Origin: an uncultured bacterium
GTDB lineage: Bacteria > Patescibacteriota > Minisyncoccia > Phycocordibacterales > Zambryskibacteraceae
Length of the DNA: 64,000 bases
Assembly: GCA_963789635.1 (NCBI GenBank)
Contig: CAWBLF010000003.1
Location: forward strand, 2,372-66,371
Direction of reading: 5' to 3'
Each line of letters opens with the position of its first letter. Positions within the stretch are counted from its first letter, which is position 1. A model generated the notes under the pieces. It was given only the letters and a program-made list of their open reading frames with translations. It had not been told where the DNA came from and ran no database searches. Both the position numbers and the translations under genes were made by a program. This document shows, one piece after another, positions 1 to 41,116 of the stretch.

Positions 1-93
1 TGTGAGTTGCCAATCTTTTTCAACATCAGATGTGCAACCAACATACAACTTCTTGTCCCTGCTACTCAGCAATATGTAAACAGAGTAGGGCAT
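1..93 (-). pseudogene. 5' fragment of GIY-YIG nuclease-like gene (mirror copy of 11991-12083), cut by the window edge
   Basis: Reverse complement of 11991-12083. The start-codon complement cat is at 91-93. Confidence 0.5.
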
Positions 94-99
94 ACATGT

Positions 100-541
100 T
101 ATTCATATTTCAAAGTGCGTCTTGTCTCTCGGTCTGTCTCGCGTTTCTTTATAGTCTGACGTTTATCAAACCTTTTCTTACCGCGGGCGATACCGAGCTC
201 TACTTTCAATTTTCTACCTTTATTATACACCGAAATAGGCACGATTGTCAATCCTTTTTGATGCTCCACCCCTTCCAATTCTTTGAGCTCTTTCTTAGTA
301 GTAATAGTCGGCGGTTGCGAGTCGGATTGTAACTTTCCGGTGTATTGGCGCTTTGAAATGGCGGAATTTGCATACCTATCAGGTACGCTTCCTTGCCTCG
401 GATGGTGACATGCGAACCCTCAAGGTTGCCCTGCCCTTTCCTCAAGCTTTTTACTTCAAGGCCGATAAGCTCGATACCGGCTTCGAGCTTTTCTGTAATT
501 TCATAATTAAAATGCGCCTTTTTGTTTTGGATAAGACTCAT
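100..541 (-). pseudogene. smpB: smpB pseudogene (decayed mirror copy of 11542-11985)
   Basis: ORF 248-541(-) matches the SmpB N-terminus MSLIQNKKAHFNYEI...NPTRNRRLLL, then loses frame near 300 through a 1-nt deletion plus substitutions relative to the right copy. Confidence 0.8.
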
Positions 542-685
542 ACAAACATGATAGCAGAATTCAAAAAAACCGGCTTAGGCCGGTCTTTCTTGTCTCGTTT
601 TTTAGACTTAATCAAAAAGTCAGTGGTCTTTTGGACGTTTGATAGAGCTTTGGCTCTTTTCCATCCGGATTTTTCTTTTTGGGCC

Positions 686-1063
686 ATTTATCTTCCTGAT
701 ACCACATTTCCAAAAACCAATTTCAACGGCGCGGCGTTTCGGTGAACCTCTCTTCTGACAACACTACATCGTGTCTGGAAAATGAAAAACGGTGAAATGG
801 CCAGCACCTGGAAAAAATTATAGGGAGATTCCTTTCGTTCAGCATGCGAAGTGATCTTGTGCAATGAGTCATCAAAGCACCGGCAATGACTATCGCGCTT
901 TTTATAACGGGAACCTGTTATGAAATCACGTCCCGCATCAATACATCCACTTTTGAGGTGTACACGATGGATTTTCTTGATAAGTCGTTACACCGATCAG
1001 GAACGAACCACAACGGGATTGATTTTGGAAAAAATCGTATCCAGTTTTAGGTTTCTAAAATAA
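686..1063 (+). pseudogene. 3' fragment of the hypothetical secreted protein gene (mirror of 10055-~10430), with the 5' half deleted
   Basis: Aligns with the reverse complement of 10055-10430 with indels. It encodes remnants of ...IYLPDTTFPKTNFNGA... and ends with the same ...SSFRFLK stop context at 1061-1063. Confidence 0.7.
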
Positions 1064-1136
1064 ATTTAATCTAGCACAAATGCGCTACATCACACCGTTT
1101 TTTATTGACGCTTAGTGATATAATTTTAGTCTATTA

Positions 1137-1545
1137 ATGAACAAAACTATGATATACCTGGCTATTTTCGTTGGTGCGCTTTTGGCTACCGCTTTCGGTT
1201 TCATATGGCATATGCCATTCGCCTTCGTAAACAATGGATGGAACTTTCTGAATAACATGCTGGGTGCAGCCAACGCTTGCTTATGTGGCAAAGATATACG
1301 GCGCAAAACTCCTGACAGCTCTGGTATCGGTATTTGTCATATACCGTTTTTTTGATCTACTGCAGATAAATTCTGTAATCGGGGCGTGCGAATTTATATT
1401 GTGGGTGTGGCTCGGGTTTATTGTCCCAATTGAGCTCGGTCAAACATTATTGACTGGCAGGTGGAAACTTTTTATCATCAACTCCTTTCAATATTTTGGG
1501 TCATATCTTTTGGCCGCTGTCCTTCTCATACTCATGACTTGTTAA
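1137..1545 (+). pseudogene. DUF1761-like membrane protein pseudogene (mirror of 9561-9980)
   Basis: Split into ORFs 1137-1355 and 1264-1545. Both match parts of the 139-aa protein MNKTMIYLAIFVGALLATAFGFIWHMPFAF... Confidence 0.75.
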
Positions 1546-2600
1546 AAAAAGGACACACCCACATGTTGGCATTTTGATCTGAAAACCGAGGAGGCGTGGG
1601 CCTCCATGAAAACTGGCTTGCTTGAATGCCAAAACCTCCATAGATGTGGAGCAATATATTTTGGAACGCGACGAAATCGGTCAAGAATTCTTGGAATTGC
1701 TTATATCCAAGCGCAAACAAGGCATTCACGTCCGAATATTGTGCGACATGGCCGGAAGTTATGGATTGTTTGCCTCCAATTTGCCAAGTACCTTGAAGGA
1801 TATCGGCATTGAAATCCGTTTTTTTATGCTTATCAGCTGTGGAGACTTTTAAATTTCTTTTCATGGTTTTTGCGTGATCACCGCAAACTGATGGTGGTAG
1901 ACGGGGCCACCGGCTTCATAGGCGGAGTGGGATTTCGCAAGGACATGCAGTTTTGGCGCGACACCCACTTGCAGATAACTGGCCCGATAGTCGGTGAAAT
2001 GCGTTTCGCCTTTGAGGAAATGTGGGAGAGGCGCTGAAAATTTCCGTCGAATAATAGAACTCGAAAATTCATAAAAGGTTTCAATTTTGTCACAAACTTC
2101 TCCTATATTCGAAACGTTTTATGTACCGAATTTTTATAGAAGCAATTCAAAACGCCCAAAAATATATTTGCATTACCACGCCATATTTCATACCTGACCG
2201 AAGGTTGCGCCGAGTCCTGAGGCCGAGACGCGGTGTGGAAGTAAAAATTCTCATTTGACAGAAGTTATTACAAAAGTGTGGATTTGGCCTCACGGACTTG
2301 CTTCTAAAAACTACTTTCATTCGGTGTCAAAATATTTTTTGTATACCAACGAAATGATACACGCCAAAACAGCCGGTCATACAATGACGAATGGCTACCG
2401 CTGGGCAGTTCAAACTTCTTCGAGTTTTTCTCATAATTACGAGGAAAATATTGTCAGTACCAAAAAAGATTTTGCTATGGAAGCTGAAAAAAAATATTTT
2501 GATGTAGATTCGGACTATGCAAAAAAAGGGCTCATATTGGCCGAATGAGCGTGTCCTAATTTTCGTGAAACTATAATGTTACGCTTACGGTATCCCTCAA
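1541..2600 (+). pseudogene. cls: Cardiolipin synthase (PLD family) pseudogene (mirror of 8477-9568)
   Basis: Fragments 1622-1852 and 2255-2548 and antisense pieces match the Cls protein. Multiple frameshifts and stops are present. Confidence 0.75.
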
Positions 2601-3758
2601 CTGAAAGTGAAAGTGTAGGCCTGAAGTCCGGGGGTTTCGATAATAAACTGTAGTGTATGCGTTCCGGTTGAGCTATCTTGAATTATGTTATAAAGTGCAT
2701 CGTCTTTTACTAACATGCCTTCCGTCTGTGGTTGTCACAACATCGCTCCCTTTCTCGACACCAAGACGTCACGAAGAATTTCCACAGTTGTATCGGTATT
2801 CGCTCCGGCAACAAAAAATACATTGGTGGCGGTGTATTGATATTCTATTTGTGCATTTCGCGATTTATTTTGCGCATACTGGTCAAAAAATTCCAATCAC
2901 CAGAAAGATAGAACGTATCCGGATTAATTGTTTGTGGAATTACCAGTTCCGGCTTGTAGACCAGCCAGACTCTGCATGCCATTGCCAAAAAATTCGTTTC
3001 TAGCTGAACCAAAATACGTCTGGGCTCATCGGTCCACTTGGAGTTTGGCTCACGTCTGTGGTCAAAGGTTGTGCTATCCCTGTCGTAGGAAGACCAAGTA
3101 CCACTGCACGTTCTACAAGAGCCTTTTTGAATCTCTTGTTCAGTTTCTTGGTAATTACCTTCCCACTCTGGTCGTGGACCACATAGCCATCTATATCTAT
3201 AAGATATTCGTGTGGCCAATACTGGTTGTCGTACGCTTTCCATGTGCCGTAATTACTGTCAAGAATGATGGGGTACGATGCGCAAACGAGTCACTGCCTT
3301 CGTAACGTTGTTAATATCTTTTTCAATTAATTGGCCGCACTCCGATAATCTCAAGTCCATATTTTGCATATTTGCTATACGAGCTGTTTAGATACGAAAT
3401 AGCGCGCGTACAATCGACAGCTGTAAGTCCAGAAGTCTATGAGAATTACTTTCTTGCCAACCAAACTTGAAATGGTAACAGGCTTTCCGCCTGTATTTAT
3501 AAATCCCGTTGGATTGGTTGTGAGCTAAAACGCTCGTGCCTTTTGCTGCGGAGTAAAACACGTGTAACCGGTCGTTGTGGTTGTAGTTGATGAAACCGCC
3601 ACATCTGTCGAGCTCGTAGCTGATCGCGCTGGCACCACGGAGACAGCGTCTACCCCACCGGAGCCAATGCGTGACTGGCGAGAACTTAGAAATATTATGG
3701 CGCTTACAATGATGATAACGACGAGCGCAAGAGTCAGTCTGCGTGTAGAGGTATTCAT
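2597..3758 (-). pseudogene. Thioredoxin-like (TlpA/DipZ-type) protein pseudogene (mirror of 7284-8480)
   Basis: ORFs 3525-3758(-), 2845-3243(-) and 3000-3182(-) each match separate segments of the 398-aa protein in different frames. Confidence 0.75.
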
Positions 3759-3759
3759 G

Positions 3760-4474
3760 TTATCTAAGCAAAATATTATTTATAAAATCAAAATTAGCGA
3801 TGAGTGGTAAACTTTGTGTAAACACCAAAACTCCAAGAGCAAGAAGGACGATACCAAACACAATATTTACAATTTTTAATGCTTTCGGTGCGTGAATTAA
3901 TGAAGCGACTGGCTCTGTGCGGTAGAATAACTGACAATCAAGAACGGTACGCCAAGCCCCAGTAGATAGACCGAGAAGAAGGACAAAGGCTACTGGGTTC
4001 GGTGTAGTGCAATTCCGAGTATTACACCGAGGGCCGGGCGAGCACACGGCGTCCATCCCGCCGACAAATGCTAGACCAAAAAGAAACGACGTTATAACGG
4101 GAAGAAAATTTTCTTTTAACTCCAAACTTGTATTCCTTTTCTAGGAATGGAATCTTGATAAGCCCGACAAGAAAAAGACCAAAAACAATTATGAGTAGCC
4201 TGCTAATGCGCGAAAGCCATGTCTGCACGTCGTATGCCACGTGAGTAAGTACGGTATTTAGAAGAACACCTAGAATGGCAAAAACAAAAGAGAAACCAAA
4301 AACAAAAAAAAACGCTGTTGAGAAAAATGACTTTACGCTTGTTTCATCGTTTGGTGCGGCGCCTGCAAGATATGCCAAAAAACCGGGCAATAATAGGCAA
4401 CACACAAGGAAGAAGAGGAATGAGACAAGACCTGCGACAAACGCAGCAATGAGTGAAATAGAATGTCCGAACAT
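3760..4474 (-). pseudogene. ccdA: ccdA pseudogene (mirror of 6572-7282)
   Basis: ORFs 4022-4489(-) and 3760-4125(-) match CcdA in two frames. The SPCVLP cysteine motif is replaced by out-of-frame sequence. Confidence 0.8.
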
Positions 4475-4581
4475 AAAAAAACAGATCAAACTTTTAAGTT
4501 ACTAATTATATCAGAGGGCCATTGAAAATTGCTGTATTAACGATATAATTGGGAGGTCAATTAATCAAACACACAAATATC

Positions 4582-5090
4582 TTGAGTAACGTACGCATCA
4601 ACCACCGAATCAAAGCGCCAGAACTTCTCGTATTATCGGCCCGAAGGAGGAAACTTCGCGTTATCACGACGCTCTCCGTGGCTCTGGCCAAAGCTCACGA
4701 GCTTGATAGTGACCTTATTGAAATCTCCCCCCACCGCCACTCCGCCTATCGAAAAATTATGGACTATGGGGATCAATATGCCGAAAATAAAAAGCAAAAA
4801 GTCGCCAAGGCCAAAACTCATTCTCCGTAGAAGTTAAAAATATTCAAATCAAAGCGGACCGGAGAAACACGATGGCTCAAAAGCCAAAAAAGCTTCCGAG
4901 TGGCTTAGCGAGGGACATCGTGTAAACTCGATTTATTCTTGCCTGGACGAACCAAATATATGGACAGAAAATTCCTCGAGGAACGAATGGAGCGGGTCTT
5001 CAAACTTTTTACCTGTGGGACAAAATAGCCTCTCCCCCCACAGAAGAGTTCTCAAAGGACTGACTTGTTATTGTTGAAAGAGTTAAATAA
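4582..5090 (+). pseudogene. infC: infC pseudogene (mirror of 5959-6468)
   Basis: ORF 4549-4830 starts like IF-3 (..SNVRINHRIKAPEL) and then frameshifts repeatedly. The terminal ..VERVK stop context is kept at 5088-5090. Confidence 0.8.
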
Positions 5091-5225
5091 GCTGGAAAGT
5101 TTAGAAGTTATATAAGTTAAATAAGTTTTGAACCGGAAGACTAACTTCGTCCCAGCTAGCAAGCCAGGCTATAAAGTTGCAAAAAATCCTCAAATCTGTA
5201 AGATATAAGCCCTACGTTAAATATT

Positions 5226-5420
5226 TTGAATATGGCCATAAAGACCAACAAATCCTATAGCAAGCGCCTCAAAGTCACCAAAAAGTGGCAAATATTTTCG
5301 TCGCAAGGCAGGTCAAAACCACTTCAACGCCAAAAGGCAAGCAAACAACTCGCCAAGAAACGCGGACAAAAATTCATCATAACCAATAAATCCGCCAGTC
5401 GTTATCTAGTAAATATTTAA
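5226..5420 (+). pseudogene. rpmI: Degenerate rpmI copy (mirror of 5624-5821)
   Basis: The 64-aa ORF matches L35 at both ends, but residues ~20-39 are out of frame through compensating indels. Confidence 0.6.
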
Positions 5421-5461
5421 AATAATTCCATGACTAGAGTTAAAAGGGGGTTAATGCAATC

Positions 5462-5614
5462 TCAATATGCTCGAAAATTCTTGCTTAAAACACTACCAAG
5501 GGTTCTTATACCGTTTTTGCTCATGGCCGAACGTCCATGCCTATAACCCTTGGTGGCTTTAAGCAAGTTTCGACGGTATTTGAGTGCATTAACCCCCTTT
5601 TTAACTCTAGTCAT
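5462..5614 (-). pseudogene. rplT: rplT (ribosomal protein L20) truncated after 50 codons at the palindrome hinge
   Basis: ATG is at 5614. MTRVKKGVNALKYRRNLLKATKGYRHGRS... resembles an L20 N-terminus. A stop falls at 5462-5464, where the sequence meets the inverted copy of its own first 29 nt (5430-5458). Confidence 0.7.
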
Positions 5615-5623
5615 GGAATTATT

Positions 5624-5821
5624 TTAAATATTTACTAGATAACGACTGGCGGATTTATTGGTTATGATGAATTTTTGTCCGCGTTTCTTGGCGAGTTGTT
5701 TGCTTCGACTCTCCTTGGCGTTGAAGTGGTTTTGACCTGCCTTGCGAGACAAAATCTTGCCACTTTTGGTGACTTTGAGGCGCTTGCTATAGGATTTGTT
5801 GGTCTTTATGGCCATATTCAA
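5624..5821 (-). CDS. rpmI: 50S ribosomal protein L35
   Basis: 65-aa basic protein MNMAIKTNKSYSKRLKVTKSGKILSRKAGQNHF... located between infC and rplT. Confidence 0.9.
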   Translation of the reverse strand: MNMAIKTNKSYSKRLKVTKSGKILSRKAGQNHFNAKESRSKQLAKKRGQKFIITNKSASRYLVNI

Positions 5822-5958
5822 AATATTTAACGTAGGGCTTATATCTTACAGATTTGAGGATTTTTTGCAACTTTATAGCCTCACTTGTAGGCTCGGCTTC
5901 CAAGTTAGTCTTCCGGTTCAAAACTTATTTAACTTATATAACTTCTAAACTTTCCAGC

Positions 5959-6468
5959 TTATTTAACTCTTTCAACAATAACAGTCAGTCCTTTGAGACT
6001 CTTTTGTGGGGGAGAGGCTATTTTGTATTCCACGGTAAAAAGTTTGAAGACCCGCTCCATTCGTTCCTCGAGGAATTTTCTGTCCATATATTTGGTTCGT
6101 CCAGGCAAGAATAAATCGAGTTTTACACGATGTCCCTCGCTAAGCCACTCGGAAGCTTTTTTGGCTTTTAGAGCAAGATCGTGTTCTCCGGTGCCCACTT
6201 TGATTTGAATATTTTTAACTTCTACGGAATGAGTTTTGGCCTTGGCGACTTTTTGCTTTTTATTTTCGGCGTATTGATACTTGCCATAGTCCATAATTTT
6301 TCCGATAGGCGGAGTGGCGGTGGGGGAGATTTCAATAAGGTCACTATCAAGCTCGTGAGCTTTGGCCAGAGCCACGGAGAGCGTCATAACGCCGAAGTTT
6401 TCTCCTTCAGGGCCGATAATACGAAGTTCTGGCGCTTTGATTTGGTGGTTGATGCGTACGTTACTCAA
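5959..6468 (-). CDS. infC: Translation initiation factor IF-3
   Basis: 169 aa with INHQIKAPELRIIGPEGENFGV N-terminus and IF-3 C-domain pattern. TTG start. infC-rpmI-rplT gene order. Confidence 0.9.
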   Translation of the reverse strand: MSNVRINHQIKAPELRIIGPEGENFGVMTLSVALAKAHELDSDLIEISPTATPPIGKIMDYGKYQYAENKKQKVAKAKTHSVEVKNIQIKVGTGEHDLALKAKKASEWLSEGHRVKLDLFLPGRTKYMDRKFLEERMERVFKLFTVEYKIASPPQKSLKGLTVIVERVK

Positions 6469-6571
6469 TATTTGTGTGTTTAATTAATTAACCTGCCAAT
6501 TATATCGTTAATACAGCAATTTTTCAATGGCCCTCTGATATAATTAGTAACTTAAAAGTTTAATATATTTT

Positions 6572-7282
6572 ATGTTCGGAACAAGTATCTCACTCATTGC
6601 TGCGTTTGTCGCAGGTCTTGTCTCATTCCTCTCTCCTTGTGTGTTGCCTATTATTCCCGGTTTTTTGGCATATCTTGCAGGCGCCGCACCAAACGATGAA
6701 ACCAAGCGTAAAGTCATTTTTCTCAACAGCGTTTTTTTTGTTTTTGGTTTCTCTTTTGTTTTTGCCATTCTAGGTGTTCTTCTAAATACCGTACTTACTC
6801 ACGTGGCATACGACGTGCAGACATGGCTTTCGCGCATTGGCGGGCTACTCATAATTGTTTTTGGTCTTTTTCTTGTCGGGCTTATCAAGATTCCATTCCT
6901 AGAAAAGGAATACAAGTTTGGAGTTAAAAGAAAATTTTCTTCCCGTTATATAACGTCGTTTCTTTTTGGTCTAGCATTTGTGGCAGGATGGACGCCGTGT
7001 GTCGGCCCGGCCCTCGGTGTAATACTCGGAATTGCGGCTACACAACCGGGGTCAGCCTTTGTCCTTCTTCTCGTCTATGCTCTGGGGCTTGGCGTACCGT
7101 TCTTGATTGTCGGTTACTTTACCGCACAAGCCAGTCGCTTCATTGATTCACACACGAAAGCATTAAAAATTGTAAATATTGTGTTTGGTATCGTCCTTCT
7201 TGCTCTTGGAGTTTTGGTGTTTACACAAAGTTTACCGCTCATCGCTAATTTTGATTTTATAAATAATATTTTGCTTAGATAA
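6572..7282 (+). CDS. ccdA: Cytochrome c biogenesis/thiol-disulfide transporter CcdA (DsbD family)
   Basis: Polytopic membrane protein carrying the two conserved Cys motifs LSPCVLP and GWTPCVGP. Confidence 0.85.
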   Translation: MFGTSISLIAAFVAGLVSFLSPCVLPIIPGFLAYLAGAAPNDETKRKVIFLNSVFFVFGFSFVFAILGVLLNTVLTHVAYDVQTWLSRIGGLLIIVFGLFLVGLIKIPFLEKEYKFGVKRKFSSRYITSFLFGLAFVAGWTPCVGPALGVILGIAATQPGSAFVLLLVYALGLGVPFLIVGYFTAQASRFIDSHTKALKIVNIVFGIVLLALGVLVFTQSLPLIANFDFINNILLR

Positions 7283-7283
7283 C

Positions 7284-8480
7284 ATGAATACCTCTACACG
7301 CAGACTGACTCTTGCGCTCGTCGTTATCATCATTGTAAGCGCCATAATATTTCTAAGTTCTCGCCAGTCACGCATTGGCTCCGGTGGGGTAGACGCTGTC
7401 TCCGTGGTGCCAGCGCGATCAGCTACGAGCTCGACAGATGTGGCGGTTTCATCGACTACAACCACAACGACCGGTTACACGTTTCTTACTCCCGCACAAA
7501 AGGCACAACAGTTTAGCTTGGCAAAAGAGATTACCGATCCAACGGGATTTATAAATACAGGCGGAAAGCCTGTTACCATTTCAAGTTTGGTTGGCAAGAA
7601 AGTAATTCTCATAGACTTCTGGACTTACAGCTGTATCAATTGTCAGCGCACTATTCCGTATCTAAACAGCTGGTATAGCAAATATGCAAAATATGGACTT
7701 GAGATTATCGGAGTGCACAGCCCGGAGTTTGATTTTGAAAAAGATATTAACAACGTTACGAAGGCAGTGACTCGTTTCGGCATTGAGTACCCCGTCGTTC
7801 TTGACAGTAATTACGGCACATGGAAAGCGTACGACAACCAGTATTGGCCACACGAATATCTTATAGATATAGATGGCTATGTGGTCCACGACCAGATTGG
7901 GGAAGGTAATTACCAAGAAACTGAACAAGAGATTCAAAAAGCTCTTGTAGAACGTGCAGTGGTACTTGGTCTTCCTACGACAGGGATAGCACAACCTTTG
8001 ACCACAGACGTGAGCCAAACTCCAAGTGGACCGATGAGCCCAGAAACATATTTTGGTTCAGCTAGAAACGAATTTTTTGGCAATGGCATGCAGAGTCTGG
8101 CTGGTCTACAAGCCGGACTGGTGATTCCACAAACAATTAATCCGGATACGTTCTATCTTTCTGGTGATTGGAATTTCTTTGACCAGTATGCGCAAAATAA
8201 ATCGGCAAATGCACAAATAGAATATCAATACACCGCCACCAATGTATTTTTTGTTGCCGGCGCGAATACCGATACAACTGTGGAAATTCTTCGTGACGGG
8301 AAACCTCTTGGTGTCGAGAAAGGGAGCGATGTTGTGACAACCACAGACGGAAAGACAGTGGTTCACATAAAAGACAATCGGCTTTATAACATAATTCAAG
8401 ATAGCTCAACCGGAACGCATACACTACAGTTTATTATCGAAACCCCCGGACTTCAGGCCTACACTTTCACTTTTGGTTAA
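7284..8480 (+). CDS. Membrane-anchored thioredoxin-like protein (TlpA/ResA fold with DipZ-like C-terminal domain)
   Basis: N-terminal TM helix and a CxxC motif in FWTYSCINCQRT. Located immediately downstream of ccdA (stop/start 1 nt apart). Confidence 0.75.
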   Translation: MNTSTRRLTLALVVIIIVSAIIFLSSRQSRIGSGGVDAVSVVPARSATSSTDVAVSSTTTTTTGYTFLTPAQKAQQFSLAKEITDPTGFINTGGKPVTISSLVGKKVILIDFWTYSCINCQRTIPYLNSWYSKYAKYGLEIIGVHSPEFDFEKDINNVTKAVTRFGIEYPVVLDSNYGTWKAYDNQYWPHEYLIDIDGYVVHDQIGEGNYQETEQEIQKALVERAVVLGLPTTGIAQPLTTDVSQTPSGPMSPETYFGSARNEFFGNGMQSLAGLQAGLVIPQTINPDTFYLSGDWNFFDQYAQNKSANAQIEYQYTATNVFFVAGANTDTTVEILRDGKPLGVEKGSDVVTTTDGKTVVHIKDNRLYNIIQDSSTGTHTLQFIIETPGLQAYTFTFG

Positions 8481-9568
8481 AGAAATCTTCGTAACGGTAA
8501 CATTATAGTTTCACGAAATTTTTGGTGCAGAGGACGCGCTTGCCATTCGGCCAATTCAGCCCTTTTTGCATAGTCCAAATCTACATCAAAATATTTTTTG
8601 ACTTCCATAGCAAAATCTTTTTTGGTACTGACAATATTTGCCTCGTAATTATAAAAAAAACTCAAAGAATCAAGGTTGAAACTGCCCACGGTGGCCCATT
8701 CGTCATCTATGACCGCTGTTTTGGCGTGTATCATTTCGTTGGTATACAAAAATATTTTGACACCGGATGAAAGTAGTTTTTCAAAGCAAGTCCGTGAGGC
8801 CAAATCCACACTTTTGTAGTTTGATGACTCTGGAATGAGAATTTTTACTTCCACACCGCGTCTCGCCGCCAGCCTCAGGACTCGGCGCAACCTTCGGTCA
8901 GGTATGAAATATGGCGTGGTAATGCAAATATATTTTTGGGCGTTTTGAATTGCTTCTATAAAAATTCGGTACATAAAACGTTTGCGAATATAGGGAGAGT
9001 TTGTGACAAAATTGAAACCTTTTATGAATTTTCGAGTTCTATTCATTCGACGGAAGAAATTTTCAGCGCCTGCCGTCTCCCACATTTCCTCAAAGGCGAA
9101 ACGCATTTCACCGACTATCGGGCCAGTTATCTGCAAGTGGGTGTCGCGCCAAAACTGCATGTCCTTGCGAAATCCCACTCCGCCTATGAAGCCGGTGGCC
9201 CCGTCTACCACCATCAGTTTGCGGTGATCACGCAAAAACCATGAAAAGAAATTTAAAAGTCTCCACGGCTTGATGACATTAAAAAAACGGATTTCAATGC
9301 CGATATCCTTCAAGGTACTTGGCAAATTGGAGGCAAACAATCCATAACTTCCGGCCATGTCGCACAATATTCGGACGTGAATGCCTTGTTTGCGCTTGGA
9401 TATAAGCAATTCCAAGAATTCTTGACCGATTTCGTCGCGTTCCAAAATATATTGCTCCACATCTATGGAGGTTTTGGCATTCAAGCAAGCCGTTTTCATG
9501 GAGGCCCACGCCTCCTCGGTTTTCAGATAGAAATGCCAACGTGTGGGTGTGTCCATTTTTTTAACCAA
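8477..9568 (-). CDS. cls: Cardiolipin synthase / phospholipase D family protein
   Basis: Two HKD motifs: HRKLMVVDG and HAKTAVIDDEWATVGSFNLD. Confidence 0.85.
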   Translation of the reverse strand: MVKKMDTPTRWHFYLKTEEAWASMKTACLNAKTSIDVEQYILERDEIGQEFLELLISKRKQGIHVRILCDMAGSYGLFASNLPSTLKDIGIEIRFFNVIKPWRLLNFFSWFLRDHRKLMVVDGATGFIGGVGFRKDMQFWRDTHLQITGPIVGEMRFAFEEMWETAGAENFFRRMNRTRKFIKGFNFVTNSPYIRKRFMYRIFIEAIQNAQKYICITTPYFIPDRRLRRVLRLAARRGVEVKILIPESSNYKSVDLASRTCFEKLLSSGVKIFLYTNEMIHAKTAVIDDEWATVGSFNLDSLSFFYNYEANIVSTKKDFAMEVKKYFDVDLDYAKRAELAEWQARPLHQKFRETIMLPLRRFL

Positions 9569-9980
9569 TCATCAGTATGAGAAGGACAGCGGCCAAAAGA
9601 TATGACCCAAAATATTGAAAGGAGTTGATGATAAAAAGTTTCCACGATTTGCCAGTCAATAATGTTTGACCGAGCTCGATTGGGACAATAAACCCGAGCC
9701 ACACCCACAATATAAATTCGCACGCCCCGATTACAGAATTTATCTGCAGTAGATCAAAAAAACGGTATATGACAAATACCGATACCAGAGCTGTCAGGAG
9801 GTTTGCGCCGTATATCTTTGCCATATAGCGAGCGTTGGCTCGGCCCATTTTTTCCGGTGTTATTCCAGAAAGTTCCATCCATTGTTTACCGAAGGCGAAT
9901 GGCATATGCCATATGAAACCGAAAGCGGTAGCCAAAAGCGCACCAACGAAAATAGCCAGGTATATCATAGTTTTGTTCAT
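9561..9980 (-). CDS. DUF1761-like small membrane protein
   Basis: 139 aa with 4 predicted TM helices. The family assignment is from overall pattern only. Confidence 0.55.
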   Translation of the reverse strand: MNKTMIYLAIFVGALLATAFGFIWHMPFAFGKQWMELSGITPEKMGRANARYMAKIYGANLLTALVSVFVIYRFFDLLQINSVIGACEFILWVWLGFIVPIELGQTLLTGKSWKLFIINSFQYFGSYLLAAVLLILMIG

Positions 9981-10054
9981 TAATAGACTAAAATTATATC
10001 ACTAAGCGTCAATAAAAAACGGTGTGATGTAGCGCATTTGTGTCAGATTTAAAT

Positions 10055-10831
10055 TTATTTTAGAAACCTAAAACTGGATACGATTTTTTCCAAAATCAAT
10101 CCCGTTGTGGTTCGTTCCTGATCGGTGTAACGACTTATCGATCCATCCGTGTACACCTCAAAAGTGGATGTATTGATGCGGGTTGTGATTTCATAACAGG
10201 TTCCGTTATAAAAAGCGCGATAGTCATTGCCGGTGCTTTGATGACTCATTGCCGCATCACTTGCGGTGTATGAGACGAAAGGAATACTGCCTATAATTTT
10301 TTCCGAGGTGCTGGCCATTTCACCGTTTTTCATTTCCAGACACGATGTAGTGTTGTCGGAGGTTACGTTGACCGAAACGCCGGCGCCGTTGAAATTGGTT
10401 TTTGGAAATGTGGTATCAGGAAGATAAATGCAAACGATGCCGGTATCGGGGTTGCACGTCGGCAAATAGCTGACCGCGCTCATGCTAGCTTTGTCCGCAA
10501 TGACACGGGCGATGTCTGGGGTGTCTATAGTAAAGCGCCCTCCACTATCGCCAAATCTTGTCCATTCCTGATCAAGGACGGCCGGCCCTCCGATAGGCAT
10601 GCCCGATTGCTCATACTGCAACATTTGTTGTTGTGTTTGCGGTGCCCCTGTTTTTGTCTGGCTGGAGCCTTGATGCGTCGCCCAAACTATACCTGAAACA
10701 ATCACGACTATGCAGGCTGTGATAATCAATGACAAAATGATTTCCTCTCTCTTGGTCATTTCCGTTTTGTCTCTCGGTGTCTGAGCAGGGTCGACTTTAT
10801 CTGAAGGAGATGGGTTTTGGGGTATTTCCAT
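10055..10831 (-). CDS. Hypothetical membrane-anchored extracytoplasmic protein
   Basis: 258-aa ORF with one N-terminal TM helix and a Cys-containing soluble domain. No motif recognised. Confidence 0.5.
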   Translation of the reverse strand: MEIPQNPSPSDKVDPAQTPRDKTEMTKREEIILSLIITACIVVIVSGIVWATHQGSSQTKTGAPQTQQQMLQYEQSGMPIGGPAVLDQEWTRFGDSGGRFTIDTPDIARVIADKASMSAVSYLPTCNPDTGIVCIYLPDTTFPKTNFNGAGVSVNVTSDNTTSCLEMKNGEMASTSEKIIGSIPFVSYTASDAAMSHQSTGNDYRAFYNGTCYEITTRINTSTFEVYTDGSISRYTDQERTTTGLILEKIVSSFRFLK

Positions 10832-11006
10832 ATAAGTAGTATACGATTTTTAAATCTAAAACCAACTGCTCAAAATATCGGCGGTCTTTTGTGAGCTTAA
10901 AAACAAAACCACCCCCGCAGTCGCGGGGGTGGTTTTGAAAAGGGAGACAATGTCCTGATCCGATAAATCGAACCGGGGTTCTCAATTTCGTAAACGAAAT
11001 CGGGAA

Positions 11007-11204
11007 TTACGCGCGTTGCACGTTCACTGCACTCATACCTTTTGGACCTTCTTCAGTTTCGAAAGAGACAGCGTCACCTTCGCGTAGCTCGTCAAACTGT
11101 ACGCCGACGAGGCCATTCTTGTGGAAGAAAAGATCTTTTGCAAGACCTTCTGCGGTGATGAAACCGAATCCTTGTTCTTTGAGGGTCTTAATAGTACCGG
11201 TCAT
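11007..11204 (-). CDS. cspA: Cold-shock domain protein
   Basis: MTGTIKTLKEQGFGFITAEG...FFH matches the CSD RNP1/RNP2 pattern (GFGFI, FFH). I chose the internal ATG at 11204 over the ORF-track start at 11243. Confidence 0.9.
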   Translation of the reverse strand: MTGTIKTLKEQGFGFITAEGLAKDLFFHKNGLVGVQFDELREGDAVSFETEEGPKGMSAVNVQRA

Positions 11205-11497
11205 TGAATGATTGTTTAAGATTAAATTACAAAAAGACGACAAAATCGACTACTTCTTCGAGCTTCTTTGTACTCTACAATACTATCATATCTCATATAA
11301 TTTGTCAACCCAAAAATCGTGGAGAGTAAATCGTTGAGCGTAAAACGTGTGTAATGGCTAGAAATATGGAATTTTGAGGCTATGGTATAATACCTGCATG
11401 CCCAAAGAAAAATCCGGATGGAAAAGAGCCAAAGCTCTATCAAACGTCCAAAAGACCACTGACTTTTTGATTAAGTCTAAAAAACGAGACAAGAAAA

Positions 11498-11521
11498 GAC
11501 CGGCCTAAGCCGGTTTTTTTG
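11498..11521. terminator. Strong GC hairpin flanked by A-run and T-run (bidirectional terminator-like), orphan between divergent csp and smpB
   Basis: gaccggc-ctaa-gccggt followed by ttttttt, with an A-run upstream. A mirror copy lies at ~566-590. Confidence 0.5.
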
Positions 11522-11541
11522 AATTCTGCTATCATGTTTGT

Positions 11542-11985
11542 ATGAGTCTTATCCAAAACAAAAAGGCGCATTTTAATTATGAAATTACAGAAAAGCTCGA
11601 AGCCGGTATCGAGCTTATCGGCCTTGAAGTAAAAAGCTTGAGGAAAGGGCAGGGCAACCTTGAGGGTTCGCATGTCACCATCCGAGGCAAGGAAGCGTAC
11701 CTGATAGGTATGCAAATTCCGCCATTTCAAAGCGCCAATACACCGGAAAGTTACAATCCGACTCGCAACCGCCGACTATTACTGACCAAGAAAGAGCTCA
11801 AAGAATTGGAAGGGGTGGAGCATCAAAAAGGATTGACAATCGTGCCTATTTCGGTGTATAATAAAGGTAGAAAATTGAAAGTAGAGCTCGGTATCGCCCG
11901 CGGTAAGAAAAGGTTTGATAAACGTCAGACTATAAAGAAACGCGAGACAGACCGAGAGACAAGACGCACTTTGAAATATGAATAA
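11542..11985 (+). CDS. smpB: SsrA-binding protein SmpB
   Basis: 147 aa with NKKAHFNYEI..LEAGIELIGLEVKS..., typical of SmpB. The tmRNA gene lies 390 nt downstream. Confidence 0.95.
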   Translation: MSLIQNKKAHFNYEITEKLEAGIELIGLEVKSLRKGQGNLEGSHVTIRGKEAYLIGMQIPPFQSANTPESYNPTRNRRLLLTKKELKELEGVEHQKGLTIVPISVYNKGRKLKVELGIARGKKRFDKRQTIKKRETDRETRRTLKYE

Positions 11986-11990
11986 CATGT

Positions 11991-12259
11991 ATGCCCTACT
12001 CTGTTTACATATTGCTGAGTAGCAGGGACAAGAAGTTGTATGTTGGTTGCACATCTGATGTTGAAAAAGATTGGCAACTCACAACAATGGACTGGTGCCT
12101 GCGACTCAGCGTCGCCGACCGCTAGAATTGATTCACATGGAAAAGTTTGATGACAAAGGTCAGGCCTTCCAACGTGAGCGATTCCTGAAAAGTTTATGGT
12201 CGGCGAGAGAGAAAAAGAAAATTCTCAAAGAATATTTACACAGAGTAGGGCGTAACTAA
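11991..12259 (+). pseudogene. GIY-YIG nuclease family gene interrupted by a -1 frameshift in an A5 run (12064-12068)
   Basis: Frame 1 reads MPYSVYILLSSRDKKLYVGCTSDVEK. It continues in another frame (ORF 12071-12259) as (R)LATHNNGLVPATQRRRPLELIHMEKFDDKGQAFQRERFLKS, the usual GIY-YIG/URI layout. Confidence 0.6.
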
Positions 12260-12371
12260 TTTGTAATACACAAATTTTGTTTGCCCTACCATTATGTGAC
12301 AGGGTGATCTGGGGCTAAAACATCTGCAGTAGCAGATGTTCGCCCGATCATTTTGTACTCAAAATGATTTA

Positions 12372-12772
12372 GGGAGTGATCGGCCTAGACAGTAGGATTC
12401 ATTTGGAATATGCAGGAGAGAGCTGTGGTGACTCTAAAATCCGCCACAAAGACTAACTGCAAACAGCACAGTCGCACGAGCAAACGTTTCTCCATATTTT
12501 GGAGCTAACGATTTTGCTTTCGCTTACGCTTCGGCCTAAACGACGTCAACTCTTACAAAGTCTGTAAGCAAGATGTTGGTGGAATAATGACGGACTCTAG
12601 AACACAACCGCTTCGGTGTGTTCTGAACTGTAGAAGCTCGGCATAATGAGGTTTTGTTTACTTCCTACTCATTACGCTCAAATCTGTCTTCGACAGGTGA
12701 AATAAACTAACTCTTGTAGAAATATTTCAAATACCTTATTGCACCGCGGTTCGATTCCGCGCACTTCCACCA
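12372..12772 (+). ncRNA. ssrA: tmRNA (ssrA), one-piece form
   Basis: The 5' GGGAGUG pairs perfectly with the 3' CACUUCC, including G3:U70. T-arm is CGCGG-UUCGAUU-CCGCG, followed by ACCA. A candidate tag ORF starts at GCA 12459 and ends ...FAYASA with TAA at 12537-12539. Adjacent to smpB. Confidence 0.8.
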
Positions 12773-12919
12773 GCAAAATGATGCCGCTCGAAAGAGCGGT
12801 TTTCATTTTGCTGGTGGAAGCTATTCTAGGAATCGAACGGCCGGAGCGCGACGGCGCGAGACGGGGTCGCGGAAATTTTTAGCAAAAAATTATCCGTGAC
12901 TCATTCCGCGCACTTCCAC
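12773..12919 (+). repeat. tRNA/tmRNA-end-associated element, copy A (appended to the tmRNA 3' end)
   Basis: 17-nt direct repeat attccgcgcacttccac at 12754-12770 and 12903-12919. 18-bp hairpin 12764-12781/12803-12820. Inverted T-loop copy at 12829-12838. GC-rich core at 12839-12880 shared with copies B, C and E. Confidence 0.55.
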
Positions 12920-13085
12920 AAAAATAAGGAACATAGTGACTATATTTTTGTAGGATACCGCTGTACTCAGTGGTGCCACTTCCAGTTGTGTTTTCTAATA
13001 CTTTTTACAGTGTTGATAGTTCGGTGTATAATCCATTTGGAAAGACGTTGAAAGTTCTTCATAACAACAATCAGGGAGAATCTAT

Positions 13086-13436
13086 ATGGCCACCTCGCTC
13101 TGTAAGGTTTCTTCTGACCCAAAACTTACCAAAGAGGCTCAATTTGAATTGGATTGCGTGACTATCGCGGGACTGATTGGTTTCATTTCTGAAGCAATCT
13201 TTTTAGCTTTTCGGATTAACGAGATCGTGGGGGTATTCTGGGCGGTACTGTTCGCCATCCTAACCGTTTTCATTCTTGGATTCTTACGGTTGCGACTGCT
13301 CTTGTTGTTTTCAGTGCCGTCTGAACAAGGTTCGGTACTTTTGACAAGTACCCGTCACACAATTGAATTGTTTGCCGTAGTATTTCCCATCTTCATCTGG
13401 TTTTTGGTATCTGTTTATGTTTTAAAAATTCTGTAG
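13086..13436 (+). CDS. Hypothetical small membrane protein
   Basis: 116-aa ORF with 3 hydrophobic segments. No motif recognised. Confidence 0.35.
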   Translation: MATSLCKVSSDPKLTKEAQFELDCVTIAGLIGFISEAIFLAFRINEIVGVFWAVLFAILTVFILGFLRLRLLLLFSVPSEQGSVLLTSTRHTIELFAVVFPIFIWFLVSVYVLKIL

Positions 13437-13532
13437 GATTCAGTAGCACTGCCTAGCCGCCCGTGAAAACGAGCGGCTATGTTTTGCAAATTTTCCAAAA
13501 TCCACTATACTTTCAGTACTTTTTGGTGATAT

Positions 13533-15488
13533 ATGCCCACAAAACCCAATAAACAAAGCCCTAAAAAGCAACCCAACGGTCTTTTCCCGGGAAATTGGAA
13601 CAAAAGGCCCAACGGCTCAGGTTCTTTGGTTCGGAATATTATTTCCACCATTCTTATTTTTTTGATTCTTTCCAGCATTTATTCGCTCATTCTCGGCAAC
13701 CAAAGCACTGTCCAGACAATTCCAATCTCCCAATTGGCCGGTGATATTATTTCCGGCGGAGTGAAGACGGTCACAGTGACAGGAGATAATTTGGATGTTG
13801 TCTATACAAACGGGGCAGATAAGCAGTCGCAGAAAGAAGCGGGTGTGGCGCTCACCCAAACTCTTGTCGATTATGGCGTGACTCCGGCGGAATTGGCGAA
13901 AGTCAGTATCAATGTCGGCAACGATCGGGGAATCGGATTTTGGCTTCTCAATTTCGGGCCAACCATCATATCTATTCTTTTTGTTTTATTTTTTGTTTGG
14001 TTTCTTTCAAGACAAGTCAAAGGCGCAGGCATGCAAGCATTTACCTTCGGTCAATCCAAGGCTAGAATCACGGCTCCTGATGATAAAAAACAAAGGGTGA
14101 CATTCAAAGATGTCGCTGGAGCCAAAGAAGCCAAGCAGGAACTTTCTGAAATTGTAGATTTTTTAAAAAGTCCGAAAAAGTTTTTGGAAATTGGTGCAGT
14201 CATACCTAAAGGCGTGCTCCTTATGGGCGCACCCGGCACCGGCAAGACTTTGCTTGCTCGCGCCGTAGCGGGGGAAGCATCTGTCGCATTCTTCTCTATT
14301 TCGGGTTCGGAGTTTGTGGAAATGTTTGTCGGTGTCGGAGCCTCGCGGGTGCGTGATCTTTTCCAACTGGCCAAGCGCGCGGCGCCAGCCATTATTTTTG
14401 TAGATGAAATTGACGCAGTTGGAAGAGTTCGCGGGGTGGGAGCTGGCGGAGGCAATGACGAACGTGAACAAACGTTGAACCAGATTCTTGTGGAAATGGA
14501 CGGCTTTGAGCCCAATGAAAAAGTGATTGTCATGGCGGCGACCAACAGACCGGATGTTCTAGACCCGGCGCTTCTTCGCCCGGGACGATTTGATCGTCGA
14601 GTGACTATTGATTTGCCGGACCGCAATGACCGGGAAGAAATTTTGCAAATCCATTCACGCAAGAAGCCTTTTGCAGAAGACGTGAACCTACGAGTGATTG
14701 CAGAGCGTACCCCTGGTTTTTCTGGTGCAGATTTATATTCGCTGATGAACGAAGGGGCGATACTGGCGGCACGCGAAAATCGGCAGAAAGTTTCTCAATA
14801 CGACCTTGTGCGTTCTATTGAGAAAGTAATGCTCGGTCCCGAGCGCAAAAGTCATTTGCTTTCCAAAAAAGAAAAAGAAATTACCGCTTACCATGAAGCT
14901 GGACACGCGCTAGTGTCTTCGGTATTGGAACATTCAGACCCGGTGCACAAAATTTCTATCATTTCCCGTGGTCGGGCGGCAGGTTATACACTCAATCTTC
15001 CTTTGGAAGACCGCAAGCTTCAGTCCAAGAAGGAATTTCTTGACGATATCGCTATGTCACTCGGTGGCTACGTGGCGGAAAAAATGATTTTTGGCGATAT
15101 CACCACCGGTCCTTCCAACGACCTGCAGGTTTCCACCGCTCTTGCCCGTGATATGGTAACAAAGTACGGGATGGCTGATGATATCGGTCCTATTGCTCTG
15201 GAGGGCCAGAGTGGGAGAACTCTTTTTGGAAAAGGCATTGACGACAAAGATTATTCCGAAAAAGTTGGCGCAAAAATTGACGAAGAAGTTTCTAAAATTA
15301 TGAATACGGCGCTTAGTCGAGCGGAGAGGGTGCTGACTGATCATCGAAAAGTGCTTGAGGCTATATCCAAACGTTTGATAGAAGTAGAAACAATTGAACG
15401 TGACGAGTTTGAATCAATACTTGTAGCGAATGGCATTGCTGTGAAGAGGTCACCTCATCCTACTGAAGACTTGGTGATAACGGGGTAG
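13533..15488 (+). CDS. ftsH: ATP-dependent zinc metalloprotease FtsH
   Basis: Walker A GAPGTGKT, Walker [10 protein letters not shown], second region of homology, and HEAGH zinc motif. Two N-terminal TM helices. Confidence 0.95.
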
Positions 15489-15542
15489 AGAAGTTGTATA
15501 ATTTGAATAAGTAAATACAGGGTAAAAAATTAAGAAAACAAA

Positions 15543-15833
15543 ATGTCAGAAGAGGGAATAAAAAAATATGAGAGCCATGAAGAAAGGGAAGCTCGTTTGG
15601 AAAGGGAAGGATTTGTTCATTTCGGAGTTGTAGCACGAGATATACTGCAACAGCAATCTCAATATGCGAGTCGTTATGTGGACGGTGAAATTCCTGGTTA
15701 TCCAAATTTAGGAGAAGGATTGCGTTTTGATGGTCACGCATACGACTATCATTCTCTGGCAATTCATAAGGATGATGTGGAAGAATTTGTAAGACGAGTG
15801 AAGGAATATAAAAAATCTAGAAGTTTTGAATAA
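15543..15833 (+). CDS. Hypothetical protein
   Basis: 96-aa acidic ORF followed by a terminator. No motif recognised. Confidence 0.4.
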   Translation: MSEEGIKKYESHEEREARLEREGFVHFGVVARDILQQQSQYASRYVDGEIPGYPNLGEGLRFDGHAYDYHSLAIHKDDVEEFVRRVKEYKKSRSFE

Positions 15834-15842
15834 AAAACAAAA

Positions 15843-15865
15843 ACGACCCAGAAAGGTCGTTTTTT
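15843..15865. terminator. Bidirectional intrinsic terminator between convergent genes
   Basis: acgacc-cagaaa-ggtcgt followed by ttttt, with an A-run upstream. Confidence 0.65.
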
Positions 15866-15886
15866 GTTTTGCTAGCTAAAATGAAA

Positions 15887-16114
15887 CTATGCGTTTCCCG
15901 GTGTTGGGCTATTTTTTGCGTTGCAAATTTTGCAGTTTGCCTTGTGCGTGAAAAGTTCATACAACGCAGAGAGACCGACAACGATGTAAATAACTTTTGT
16001 AATGATGCTATCTGCTCCTATCCAATCTCCGATGCCCTGACCGATTACTCCGATCAAAAGCCAGTTTAGACCTCCGATGATTAGGAGAATCCAAGCTACC
16101 ATGTGTAATTTCAT
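15887..16114 (-). CDS. DUF378-like small membrane protein
   Basis: 75 aa. The pattern WILLIIGGLNWLLIG...VIYIVVGLSALY is typical of DUF378. Confidence 0.65.
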   Translation of the reverse strand: MKLHMVAWILLIIGGLNWLLIGVIGQGIGDWIGADSIITKVIYIVVGLSALYELFTHKANCKICNAKNSPTPGNA

Positions 16115-16277
16115 AATGTTCTATAATATTACTAATAAATAATTGCCTGCTTCTATTGTATCAAAAAATAAACGTATTGTGGCAGTTCTCCACAGGTAAA
16201 ATCATTTGCTTGTCGATAGGTATAAATTAGCTCTAAAAAGGGCTATTATGCTATAGTTTTAGGGGTTTCCTCACATT

Positions 16278-16526
16278 CCGCCCTTAGCTCAGTTGGTTAG
16301 AGCACAGAGCTTATAATTACTAGCGAGAGGAGAAATTGTAAGCTATGCTTACATATTTCAACCGAGCGACGTAATTATATGAAAGTGTTTTTGGTGCGAG
16401 TATAGCTCAGTTGGTAGAGCGCCGAGCTTATACCTCGGTGGTCCTAGGTTCGAATCCTAGTACTCGCACCAAAAACGTTTCCATATACCTCTGCGGTCCT
16501 TGGTTCGAATCCAAGAGGGCGGACCA
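16278..16526 (+). tRNA. tRNA-Ile(UAU) gene split after position 37 by a 172-nt insert (16316-16487)
   Basis: The 5' half CCGCCCT-TA-GCTC..GAGC-A-CAGAG-CTTATA and the 3' half C-CTCTG-CGGTC-CTTGG-TTCGAAT-CCAAG-AGGGCGG-A-CCA form a perfect cloverleaf only when joined. Confidence 0.55.
16396..16471 (+). tRNA. tRNA-Ile(UAU), complete with encoded CCA, nested inside the split tRNA
   Basis: GCGAGTA/TACTCGC acceptor, canonical D and T arms, anticodon loop CTTATAC. Flanks gtttttggt/accaaaaac extend the acceptor helix to 16 bp. Confidence 0.8.
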
Positions 16527-19531: not shown

Positions 19532-19618
19532 GGAGGGTTGGGTGAGTGGTTTAAACCAACAGTTTACTAAACTGTCGTCCTTTAATTGGGACCGTGAGTT
19601 CGAATCTCACACCCTCCG
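19532..19618 (+). tRNA. Type II tRNA with Ser-like identity elements, anticodon reading ACU
   Basis: GGAGGGT/ACCCTCC acceptor, G73, long variable arm, T-arm GTGAG-TTCGAAT-CTCAC. The anticodon stem ACAGT/ACTGT encloses the loop TTACTAA. Confidence 0.7.
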
Positions 19619-19706
19619 CAATTACCAAACACCTCAACAAAAGTTGAGGTGTTTGGTAATTTATGAGGGGGCTCGGTAAATTAAAATAGGATGTTAGAAT
19701 ACAAAG

Positions 19707-40889: not shown

Positions 40890-40983
40890 GGTTGCCGTCT
40901 ACGTACCTGATCATAATGAAGTGTAGTATATATAGCGGGTTGCCGTACGTACCTGATCATAATGAAGTGTAGTATATATAGCG
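40890..40983 (+). repeat. Tandem duplication (48 + 46 nt) abutting and overlapping the 5' end of the tRNA-like gene
   Basis: ggttgccgt(ct)acgtacctgatcataatgaagtgtagtatatatagcg occurs twice. Each unit junction recreates agcgggttg, the first 9 nt of the tRNA at 40980. Confidence 0.8.
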
Positions 40984-41050
40984 GGTTGGAGGAGTAGTAC
41001 CTCGACAGGCTCATAACCTGTAGGCATCAGTGCAATTCTGATACCCGCAA
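40980..41050 (+). tRNA. tRNA(CAU) with initiator-like marks but non-canonical D and T loops
   Basis: Acceptor AGCGGGT/ACCCGCA with an A1:A72 mismatch. D stem GAGG/CCTC (A11:T24). Anticodon arm ACAGG-CTCATAA-CCTGT. T arm ATCAG-TGCAATT-CTGAT lacks TTC, and the D loop AGTAGTA lacks GG. Confidence 0.45.
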
Positions 41051-41116
41051 CAAGCACTCGTGGGTGACAGACACGAAACGAAAAATATCTAGTCACCCAT
41101 GGGATGTGAGACAATT

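Follow-up and report, generated by a model that had tools for sequence, protein, structure and literature searches.

Does the large palindrome at the start of the 64,000-nt window analysed here (the whole stretch of DNA, from one contig of a Patescibacteria metagenome-assembled genome) belong to the genome, and if not, how did it arise? The inverted repeat itself, which the first-pass annotation had described at 1-12083, is indeed present. Positions 1-5528 are the reverse complement of 5529-12083, and self-alignments of the window to its own reverse complement are far above chance: 1-678 matches 12083-11404 with 99.56% identity, and 685-5504 matches 10430-5546 with ~93%. The arms join almost loop-free within rplT, the symmetry point being 5528/5529; the arm limits of 5458 and 5585 and the 126-nt spacer proposed at first give way to a noisy hinge of 24 nt. 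The outer segment of the left arm (1-678) is a near-clean, reversed copy of 11404-12083 (smpB and the 5' part of the GIY-YIG gene) that differs at 3 sites (1 substitution and 2 one-nt deletions). It ends at a deletion junction (676-686), at which 973 bp corresponding to right-arm positions 10431-11403 are absent, in agreement with an earlier estimate of ~970 bp. This deletion has GCAT microhomology at both ends, and its junction is also the boundary between clean and noisy sequence. The noisy segment that follows (685-5504, minus strand, 93% identity to the right arm) contains garbled copies of a hypothetical gene (hyp258), the DUF1761 gene, cls, the thioredoxin-like gene, ccdA, infC, rpmI, and the 5' end of rplT. 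The turn itself (5505-5528), as delimited by alignment of both strands to an independent assembly, consists of 24 garbled nt that contain no real spacer or adapter.

The right arm (5529-12083) is authentic genome: it is 99.98% identical to that independent assembly, and its Pfam matches agree with the gene order and identities assigned earlier. It begins with the first 86 nt of rplT (5529-5614, minus strand), not 29 nt as first reported, followed by rpmI (5624-5821, minus), infC (5959-6468, minus), ccdA (6572-7282, plus), the thioredoxin-like gene (7284-8480, plus), cls (8477-9568, minus), the DUF1761 gene (9561-9980, minus), the hypothetical gene (10055-10831, minus), smpB (11542-11985, plus), and the start of a GIY-YIG pseudogene (from 11991) that carries a frameshift in an A5 run. 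(The thioredoxin-like protein has only distant relatives, at no more than 58% amino-acid identity, in a scan of genome contigs, from which the affiliation with Patescibacteria was established.) The description of one intact arm and one broken arm is correct, and no full-length ORF survives in the left arm. The smpB copy loses its frame through a 1-nt deletion at position 300, where the loss had been placed, and translation likewise bears out that residues ~20-39 of the rpmI copy are out of frame. The SPCVLP motif reported as lost from the ccdA copy is, on a brief look at the translations, not deleted; it is displaced by frameshifts, and a shifted PCVLPII appears in one frame. The A5 frameshift of the GIY-YIG gene occurs in both arms, as had been observed, and in the independent assembly as well. 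Both arms have a truncated rplT, of which the left arm carries ~70-86 nt in garbled form.

The independent assembly is Logan contig L001 (ERR12035936, 15.9 kb), which aligns to window positions 5529-16308 with 99.98% identity over 10,780 bp; the sole local difference lies at 11127-11129. L001 has no palindrome. It gives no support to the fold-back junction and reads straight through into the remainder of an intact rplT (115 aa), which is followed by two hypothetical genes and the genes for RNase J, NDK, and Map. The proteins encoded by these five neighbours are listed in NCBI/ENA, with 100% identity, on a contig of 123,957 bp, and those of the window on a different contig, of 269,280 bp; an intact RplT is on record from Logan only. 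The location of the neighbour proteins on a separate contig shows, indirectly, that the assembly broke inside rplT. (The two contigs probably belong to one assembly, to judge from their shared sources and the identical proteins.) A comparison of synteny in close relatives, which had been proposed as a check, gives the same picture: in a related species (L084-L088, five assembly records whose sequences are identical here and at least two of which come from the same run), the order rplT-hypothetical-RNase J-NDK-Map is kept and there is no fold-back. The alignments of these records to the window, at 70-89% identity and with alignment-induced gap pairs, were used solely as a codon-position control. 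The lengths of smpB and infC are kept in the related species, and the small gaps that the raw DNA alignments show seem to be products of the alignment itself. With a terminal inverted repeat and a loop-free turn, the locus resembles natural palindromes and the hairpin telomeres of linear replicons. However, the turn falls within an essential gene, and a hairpin telomere was rejected since the genome does not end there: the sequence goes on past the turn in both L001 and the related species.

What kind of process has damaged the left arm? The segment 685-5504 departs from the right arm by 120 substitutions plus 133 small indels, of which 74 are deletions and 59 insertions; counted by bases, deletions (148) exceed mismatches (120), which exceed insertions (82), for a total of ~7%. 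The differences are clustered in bursts (index of dispersion 2.8, p = 5e-10), and the share of 1-nt deletions that fall in homopolymers is about that of the background (54% vs 51%). The density of damage is similar in coding and intergenic sequence, and differences fall at codon positions 1, 2, and 3 in the numbers 38, 28, and 38, with no third-position excess, which upholds the earlier impression of unselected damage. The pattern that the first-pass annotation had set against its duplication-and-decay reading, namely an accumulation of differences at third codon positions while frames stay intact, is thus not what is found.

These same numbers bear on the possibility that contigs from two diverged strains were mis-joined head to head. 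An identity of 93% would suit related strains or species, but natural divergence in this lineage, as seen between the window and the related species, places 77% of differences at third positions. In addition, just 13 of the 133 indels are multiples of 3, so that 120 break the frame, and the left arm retains no complete ORF. A mis-join of strains is consequently extremely improbable. The first-pass annotation had itself listed a mis-join and non-natural sequence as possibilities, and an assembly chimera as an outcome that would refute its reading.

The alternative that had been put forward first, an ancient inverted duplication with neutral decay of its left arm into pseudogenes, has in its favour that the damage is blind to coding potential and that more bases are deleted than inserted, as in bacterial pseudogene decay. 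Several features nevertheless leave it with next to no probability. The ratio of substitutions to indels is 120:133 (~1:1); for bacterial genome comparisons, Chen et al. (2009) reportedly found roughly ten times as many substitutions as indels. The spectrum of the substitutions follows one DNA strand rather than being symmetric, and the differences come in bursts. Adjacent parts of the same arm differ in event density per base, from ~0.4% in 1-678 to ~5.5% past the 676-686 junction, and such a ~12-fold unevenness is not expected from one duplication event. With ~2.4% substitutions, the duplication would have to predate the split between the window and L001, yet the intact arm is only 0.02% from L001, which does not have the duplication. 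Finally, rplT is truncated in both arms.

The substitutions are strand-specific. In 685-5504, C<->T changes outnumber A<->G changes by 52 to 18 (p = 6e-5), and the excess is seen whatever the orientation of the genes (24:9 and 22:7). Taken in minus-strand orientation, the arm has 26 A<->G changes per type and 9 C<->T changes per type, which is 4.2x and 1.4x, respectively, the 6.25 seen per transversion type. In Nanopore reads, A<->G errors occur at 3-5x the transversion rate and C<->T errors at 'a bit more'; the order of errors is deletions, mismatches, insertions, and their size is similar to that in the false arm (PMC8486125). The errors of the false arm would therefore match the Nanopore profile for a read that followed the minus strand. 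The spectrum is platform-typical, and its transition bias goes with a single DNA strand, as expected of single-read errors.

At the turn, the two halves lie on opposite strands and meet at 5504/5529, well inside the limit of 200 bp for a fold-back, the 24 nt between them being garbled continuation; the fold point, at nt ~86 of rplT, has a self-complementary ACGT core. Among ONT reads of genomic DNA, ~0.55-0.6% are fold-back artefacts, in most of which <11 nt separate the arms (Heinz, Meyerson & Li 2026, PMC12870357). As in those reads, the halves here derive from one locus on opposite strands, with essentially nothing between the arms, no adapter at the junction, and no support from other data at the site. 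Unlike those reads, the structure has been frozen into a published contig end, and its second arm seems longer than that of a symmetric template-complement read and has two kb-scale deletions. Local alignment of adapters to the hinge scores no better than the window background, the turn has no SMRTbell adapter of the kind that marks a missed adapter in PacBio data, and a 39-nt pattern adjacent to the hinge has no match in a scan of metagenome contigs. The absence of an adapter remnant is compatible with the published fold-back artefacts and gives no positive support. Taken together, these observations argue that the palindrome, although present in the sequence, is almost certainly no real genomic feature, and that the left arm is very probably a technical artefact, in which one fold-back long read forms a contig end of this Patescibacteria genome.

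The left arm extends beyond the window, as the first-pass annotation had observed. A public protein, P0003, starts at window position ~51 on the minus strand and runs past the left edge into a mirrored, frameshifted ftsH. When P0003 is mapped onto the window, the mirrored arm is seen to extend at least 2.1 kb left of position 1. The authentic sequence that is mirrored there (12084-14206, plus strand, from the P0003 mapping and a tmRNA call) contains the rest of the GIY-YIG gene, a tmRNA (12372-12772), a 116-aa ORF, and the 5' part of ftsH; its mirrored copy has a deletion of 1,438 bp (12131-13568) whose ends, to the extent that the protein allows them to be reconstructed, share little microhomology. 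No mirrored fragments of genes beyond ftsH were seen, which suggests that the contig starts ~2-4.5 kb left of the window. Both the 973-bp and the 1,438-bp deletions go beyond ordinary base-calling errors and call for an added assumption: stretches that were skipped, or additional template switches.

These deletions are relevant to two other origins. In whole-genome amplification by MDA, displaced 3' ends could have been re-primed to give a physical inverted chimera with deletions, which was then sequenced and assembled; this would still be an artefact, arising in library preparation instead of read splitting. Of known MDA chimeras, >85% consist of inverted sequence with deletions in between, priming having occurred at complementary stretches of 2-21 nt (Lasken & Stockwell 2007, PMC1855051), and the locus shares the inversion, the deletions, and junctions at short complementary sequences, i.e. 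the ACGT core at the turn and the GCAT microhomology of the 973-bp deletion. The occurrence of three rearrangement junctions in ~9 kb fits as well. On the other hand, there is no sign that the sample was amplified, the 1,438-bp deletion as reconstructed has little microhomology, and MDA alone does not produce base-level noise of 7%, so that a Nanopore second-arm effect or a raw read would still be required. An MDA origin is thus unlikely.

The other origin is a real and recent fold-back inversion-duplication, carried by a minority of the cells and produced by template switching during replication, in which only the noise of the second arm is technical. True inverted duplicates are in fact miscalled in just this manner: the second arm of such a duplicate suffers miscalls and shortening along a stretch that matches the first arm in length (Spealman, Burrell & Gresham 2020, PMC7229812). 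Moreover, microhomology (ACGT) is present at the turn, and the second arm exceeds the noisy stretch and has deletions, which a simple template-complement artefact does not predict. Nonetheless, the junction cuts an essential single-copy gene, rplT, the locus is normal both in the 99.98% identical L001 and in the related species, and artefacts are frequent enough (~0.5% of reads) that an event in a single molecule carries no evidential weight. Such an event is very improbable, and its fully specified form (a switch at the ACGT core in vivo plus further deletions, in a minority of cells, captured as one Nanopore molecule, with a base-calling failure garbling its second arm) is slightly more so.

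Under the preferred explanation of a fold-back read, the true chromosome would run from 5529 leftward through the rest of rplT to the two hypothetical genes, RNase J, NDK, and Map. Instead, the assembler would have taken a read, most likely from the Oxford Nanopore platform, that turned at nt ~86 of rplT and returned along the opposite strand, and this inverted-duplicate read would have become the terminal stretch of the 269-kb contig. Positions 685-5504 would then represent one read's second arm, left uncorrected, and this read probably ran 5'->3' along the minus strand of the contig; the strand-specific substitutions and the literature on second-arm miscalling independently point to one common read direction. 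Ordinary reads presumably fit the authentic arm better, and the false arm would thus have gone unpolished and kept its single-read errors. Two variants are conceivable. In the first, the chemistry would have been accurate, and only the part of the second arm able to re-pair with the already translocated first arm miscalled and partly skipped (PMC7229812); such re-pairing would account for the end of the noise ~5-6 kb from the turn. In the second, an older chemistry would have given a raw read of ~93% accuracy, the outer part of which was partly polished. As in the published inverted duplicates, one arm has normal accuracy, and the other has miscalled or missing bases over a length similar to, and under, that of its partner; in contrast to that work, this is known here from sequence alone, and 93% identity is also that of an ordinary raw read of older chemistry, so the re-pairing mechanism is not required. 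MDA chimeras differ in that they leave the base-level noise unexplained.

On this reading, one end of a public contig carries at least ~7.6 kb of false, inverted, and error-ridden sequence. Deposited pseudo-proteins have already resulted, such as P0003, a 242-aa GIY-YIG/FtsH fusion, and the essential rplT has been split over two contigs by the artefact. Contig ends of this kind inflate estimates of duplication and contamination, create spurious 'pseudogenes', and may lead searches for palindromes, hairpin telomeres, or gene decay astray. They can be flagged without reads from the substitution:indel ratio, a one-strand transition bias, the distribution over codon positions, and comparison with an independent assembly. 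For the biology of the organism the palindrome has no significance; its value is practical only.

The palindrome at the left end of the window is an artefact of the assembly of a Patescibacteria MAG; it is neither a biological palindrome nor a set of pseudogenes. The large inverted repeat itself, carefully described in the first-pass annotation, is borne out by self-comparison: positions 1-678 pair in inverted orientation with 12083-11404 (99.56% identity), and 685-5504 pair with 10430-~5546 (about 93% identity). In a global alignment, the left arm carries 121 substitutions, 79 deletions, and 62 insertions relative to the right arm, and it lacks right-arm positions 10431-11403 as a single 973-bp deletion. 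The arm ends, originally placed at 5458 and 5585, need revision, as the arms reach a symmetry point at 5528/5529 and the right arm includes the first 86 nt of rplT. The turn consists of 24 garbled nt (5505-5528) and contains a self-complementary ACGT core. Pfam matches the gene content previously assigned to the right arm [rpmI, infC, ccdA (DsbD_TM), a gene for a thioredoxin-like protein, cls (PLDc_2), DUF1761, a hypothetical protein, smpB, and a GIY-YIG fragment]; the tmRNA gene (12372-12772) lies just beyond the repeat.

Insight into the authentic locus comes from L001, an independent contig of 15,864 bp from the Logan assembly of run ERR12035936, which was found through a look-up of the CcdA protein. 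Window positions 5529-16308 are 99.98% identical to L001, while the left arm has only 93% identity. L001 has no fold-back left of the point matching 5529; rather, it continues into a complete rplT (115 aa), two hypothetical genes, an RNase J-like beta-CASP protein, NDK, and Map. The window contains nothing of this sequence, from the remainder of rplT to Map. Because L001 runs on past the turn, a hairpin telomere is ruled out. (Across 10.8 kb, the authentic sequence departs from L001 only at 11127-11129, where an A/G-rich stretch has a small indel and a substitution, GGAAGAAAAGATC in the window vs GGAAAGAAGATC in L001; one of these assemblies may retain a consensus error here.)

The normal locus, without the palindrome, also extends through rplT in a related species, where the order is ftsH ... 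GIY-YIG - smpB ... DUF1761 - cls - infC - rpmI - rplT - hypothetical gene - RNase J - NDK - Map - adk - secY. The five assembly records of this species are identical at the locus and at least two derive from run ERR1035437, so they represent one sequence and not five independent confirmations. Of its differences from the window, 77% are at the third codon position; smpB and infC have the same lengths, and the small gaps in the raw alignments of DNA seem to be alignment artefacts. The ccdA/thioredoxin-like pair (6572-8480, plus strand), located between cls and infC, is missing at that position in the related species (9023-9108 of its locus L084); these close lineages therefore differ by a small insertion or loss of genes. 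The GIY-YIG nuclease gene (11991-12259, plus strand) is frameshifted at an A5 run at ~12064; since L001 has the identical sequence and the related species has an intact gene of 84-89 aa, the lesion appears to be genuine, a pseudogene or frameshift rather than assembly noise.

Using the authentic sequence as reference, region 685-5504 of the left arm contains 120 substitutions, 74 deletions (148 bases), and 59 insertions (82 bases), and 13 of the 133 indels are multiples of 3. Damage is alike in coding and intergenic sequence, as had been judged by eye, and errors per 100 bp range from 0 to 16 (index of dispersion 2.8, p = 5e-10). Substitutions fall 38/28/38 at codon positions 1/2/3 (chi-square p = 0.38). 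A head-to-head mis-join of two strain variants, one of the options offered at first, predicts intact frames and a third-position excess; instead, the frames are broken and there is no such excess. C<->T changes outnumber A<->G changes 52 to 18 (binomial p = 6e-5), with ratios of 24:9 and 22:7 in genes on the arm's plus and minus strands, respectively; the transition bias follows one physical strand of the DNA, independently of transcription or coding.

These data are also incompatible with the proposal of an old duplication followed by neutral decay of one arm into pseudogenes. Such decay predicts a spectrum dominated by substitutions, but there are 120 substitutions and 133 indels; it predicts strand symmetry, but C<->T and A<->G differ as noted; and it predicts uniform divergence, but the outer 678 bp have 3 small differences (about 0.4%) and the sequence immediately inside the 973-bp deletion has about 5.5% events per base. 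In addition, given about 2.4% substitutions, the duplication would have to be older than the split from L001 (0.02%) but is absent from L001, and the essential rplT would be left truncated in both arms.

Nanopore reads have a total error of about 5.7-8%, with deletions > mismatches > insertions, and in read-strand-aware counts A<->G occurs at 3-5x the transversion rate and C<->T only a bit above transversions (Delahaye & Nicolas 2021, PMC8486125). The noisy arm likewise follows the order deletions > mismatches > insertions and, read as the contig minus strand, has 26 A<->G, 9 C<->T, and 6.25 transversions per type (4.2x and 1.4x relative to transversions). Its 1-nt deletions show no enrichment in homopolymers. 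For inverted duplicates in the pore, miscalling and partial skipping affect the second arm, over a stretch whose length follows that of the first (Spealman et al. 2020, PMC7229812). This mechanism likewise requires that the noisy arm was read second, i.e. as the contig minus strand, and would account for the end of the noise at about 5-6 kb from the turn. Among ONT genomic reads, about 0.55-0.6% carry fold-back artefacts, whose arms mostly lie <11 nt apart without detectable adapter (Heinz, Meyerson & Li 2026, PMC12870357); similarly, a search for adapter sequence at the hinge was negative. The sequencing platform and polishing history of the false arm are ones that we infer. A real, recent fold-back in a few cells, represented by a single molecule, has no positive support and is considered highly improbable.

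The false arm extends past the window. P0003, a deposited 242-aa member of the FtsH cluster on the 269-kb contig that carries the window's proteins, takes its first 17 codons from window 51-1 (minus strand) and continues with GIY-YIG sequence, where the use of two frames implies a 4-nt deletion. The protein then skips 1,438 bp, corresponding to right-arm 12131-13568 and including the tmRNA gene, resumes with FtsH residues 13-219 (206/207 identical), and terminates past a 1-nt insertion in a run of A. Consequently, the mirrored arm reaches at least 2.1 kb past position 1; no mirrored fragments of genes further right were seen in their protein clusters, which suggests a contig start roughly 2-4.5 kb to the left of the window. 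The false arm has two kb-scale deletions, one of 973 bp (junction 676-686, with GCAT microhomology) and one of 1,438 bp, which drops the mirrored tmRNA gene and joins GIY-YIG and ftsH fragments into this pseudo-protein. Neither deletion is an ordinary base-calling error; the missing stretches could have slipped through the pore or, alternatively, might reflect additional template switching like that in MDA chimeras, most of which combine inversion with deletions at complementary sequences of 2-21 nt (PMC1855051); the ACGT core at the turn fits an enzymatic strand switch.

Elsewhere in the window, a RecG-like helicase (16581-19187, minus strand; wedge, DEAD, Helicase_C, and RecG_dom3_C domains) has a PD-(D/E)XK_3 nuclease-superfamily domain (residues 459-571) between its helicase lobes. 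A 701-aa protein with two Bact_surface_Ig-like domains contains a 100% identical 245-bp direct repeat (50490-50734 and 50805-51049), which could be a very recent domain duplication or may reflect uncertain copy number in a long-read assembly. Short tandem and direct repeats (53-131 nt, 96-99% identical) at 40890-41412 surround two tRNA-Met genes (40980-41051 and 41294-41367). ARAGORN reports unusual anticodons for tRNA-Ile(TAT) (16396-16471) and tRNA-Ser(ACT) (19532-19619), both of which have good tRNA scores in Rfam.

Exact-sequence look-ups place the window's proteins on a 269,280-bp contig in NCBI and ENA, and the five proteins flanking rplT in L001 have 100% identical counterparts on a separate 123,957-bp contig in the same databases; the intact 115-aa RplT is recorded from Logan only. 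To judge from shared sources and identical proteins, the two contigs probably belong to one assembly. The simplest reading is that the contigs of the public MAG break apart inside rplT and that the fold-back, instead of the true neighbour, was used to extend one side. In practice, the outcome is a warning flag on this contig end.
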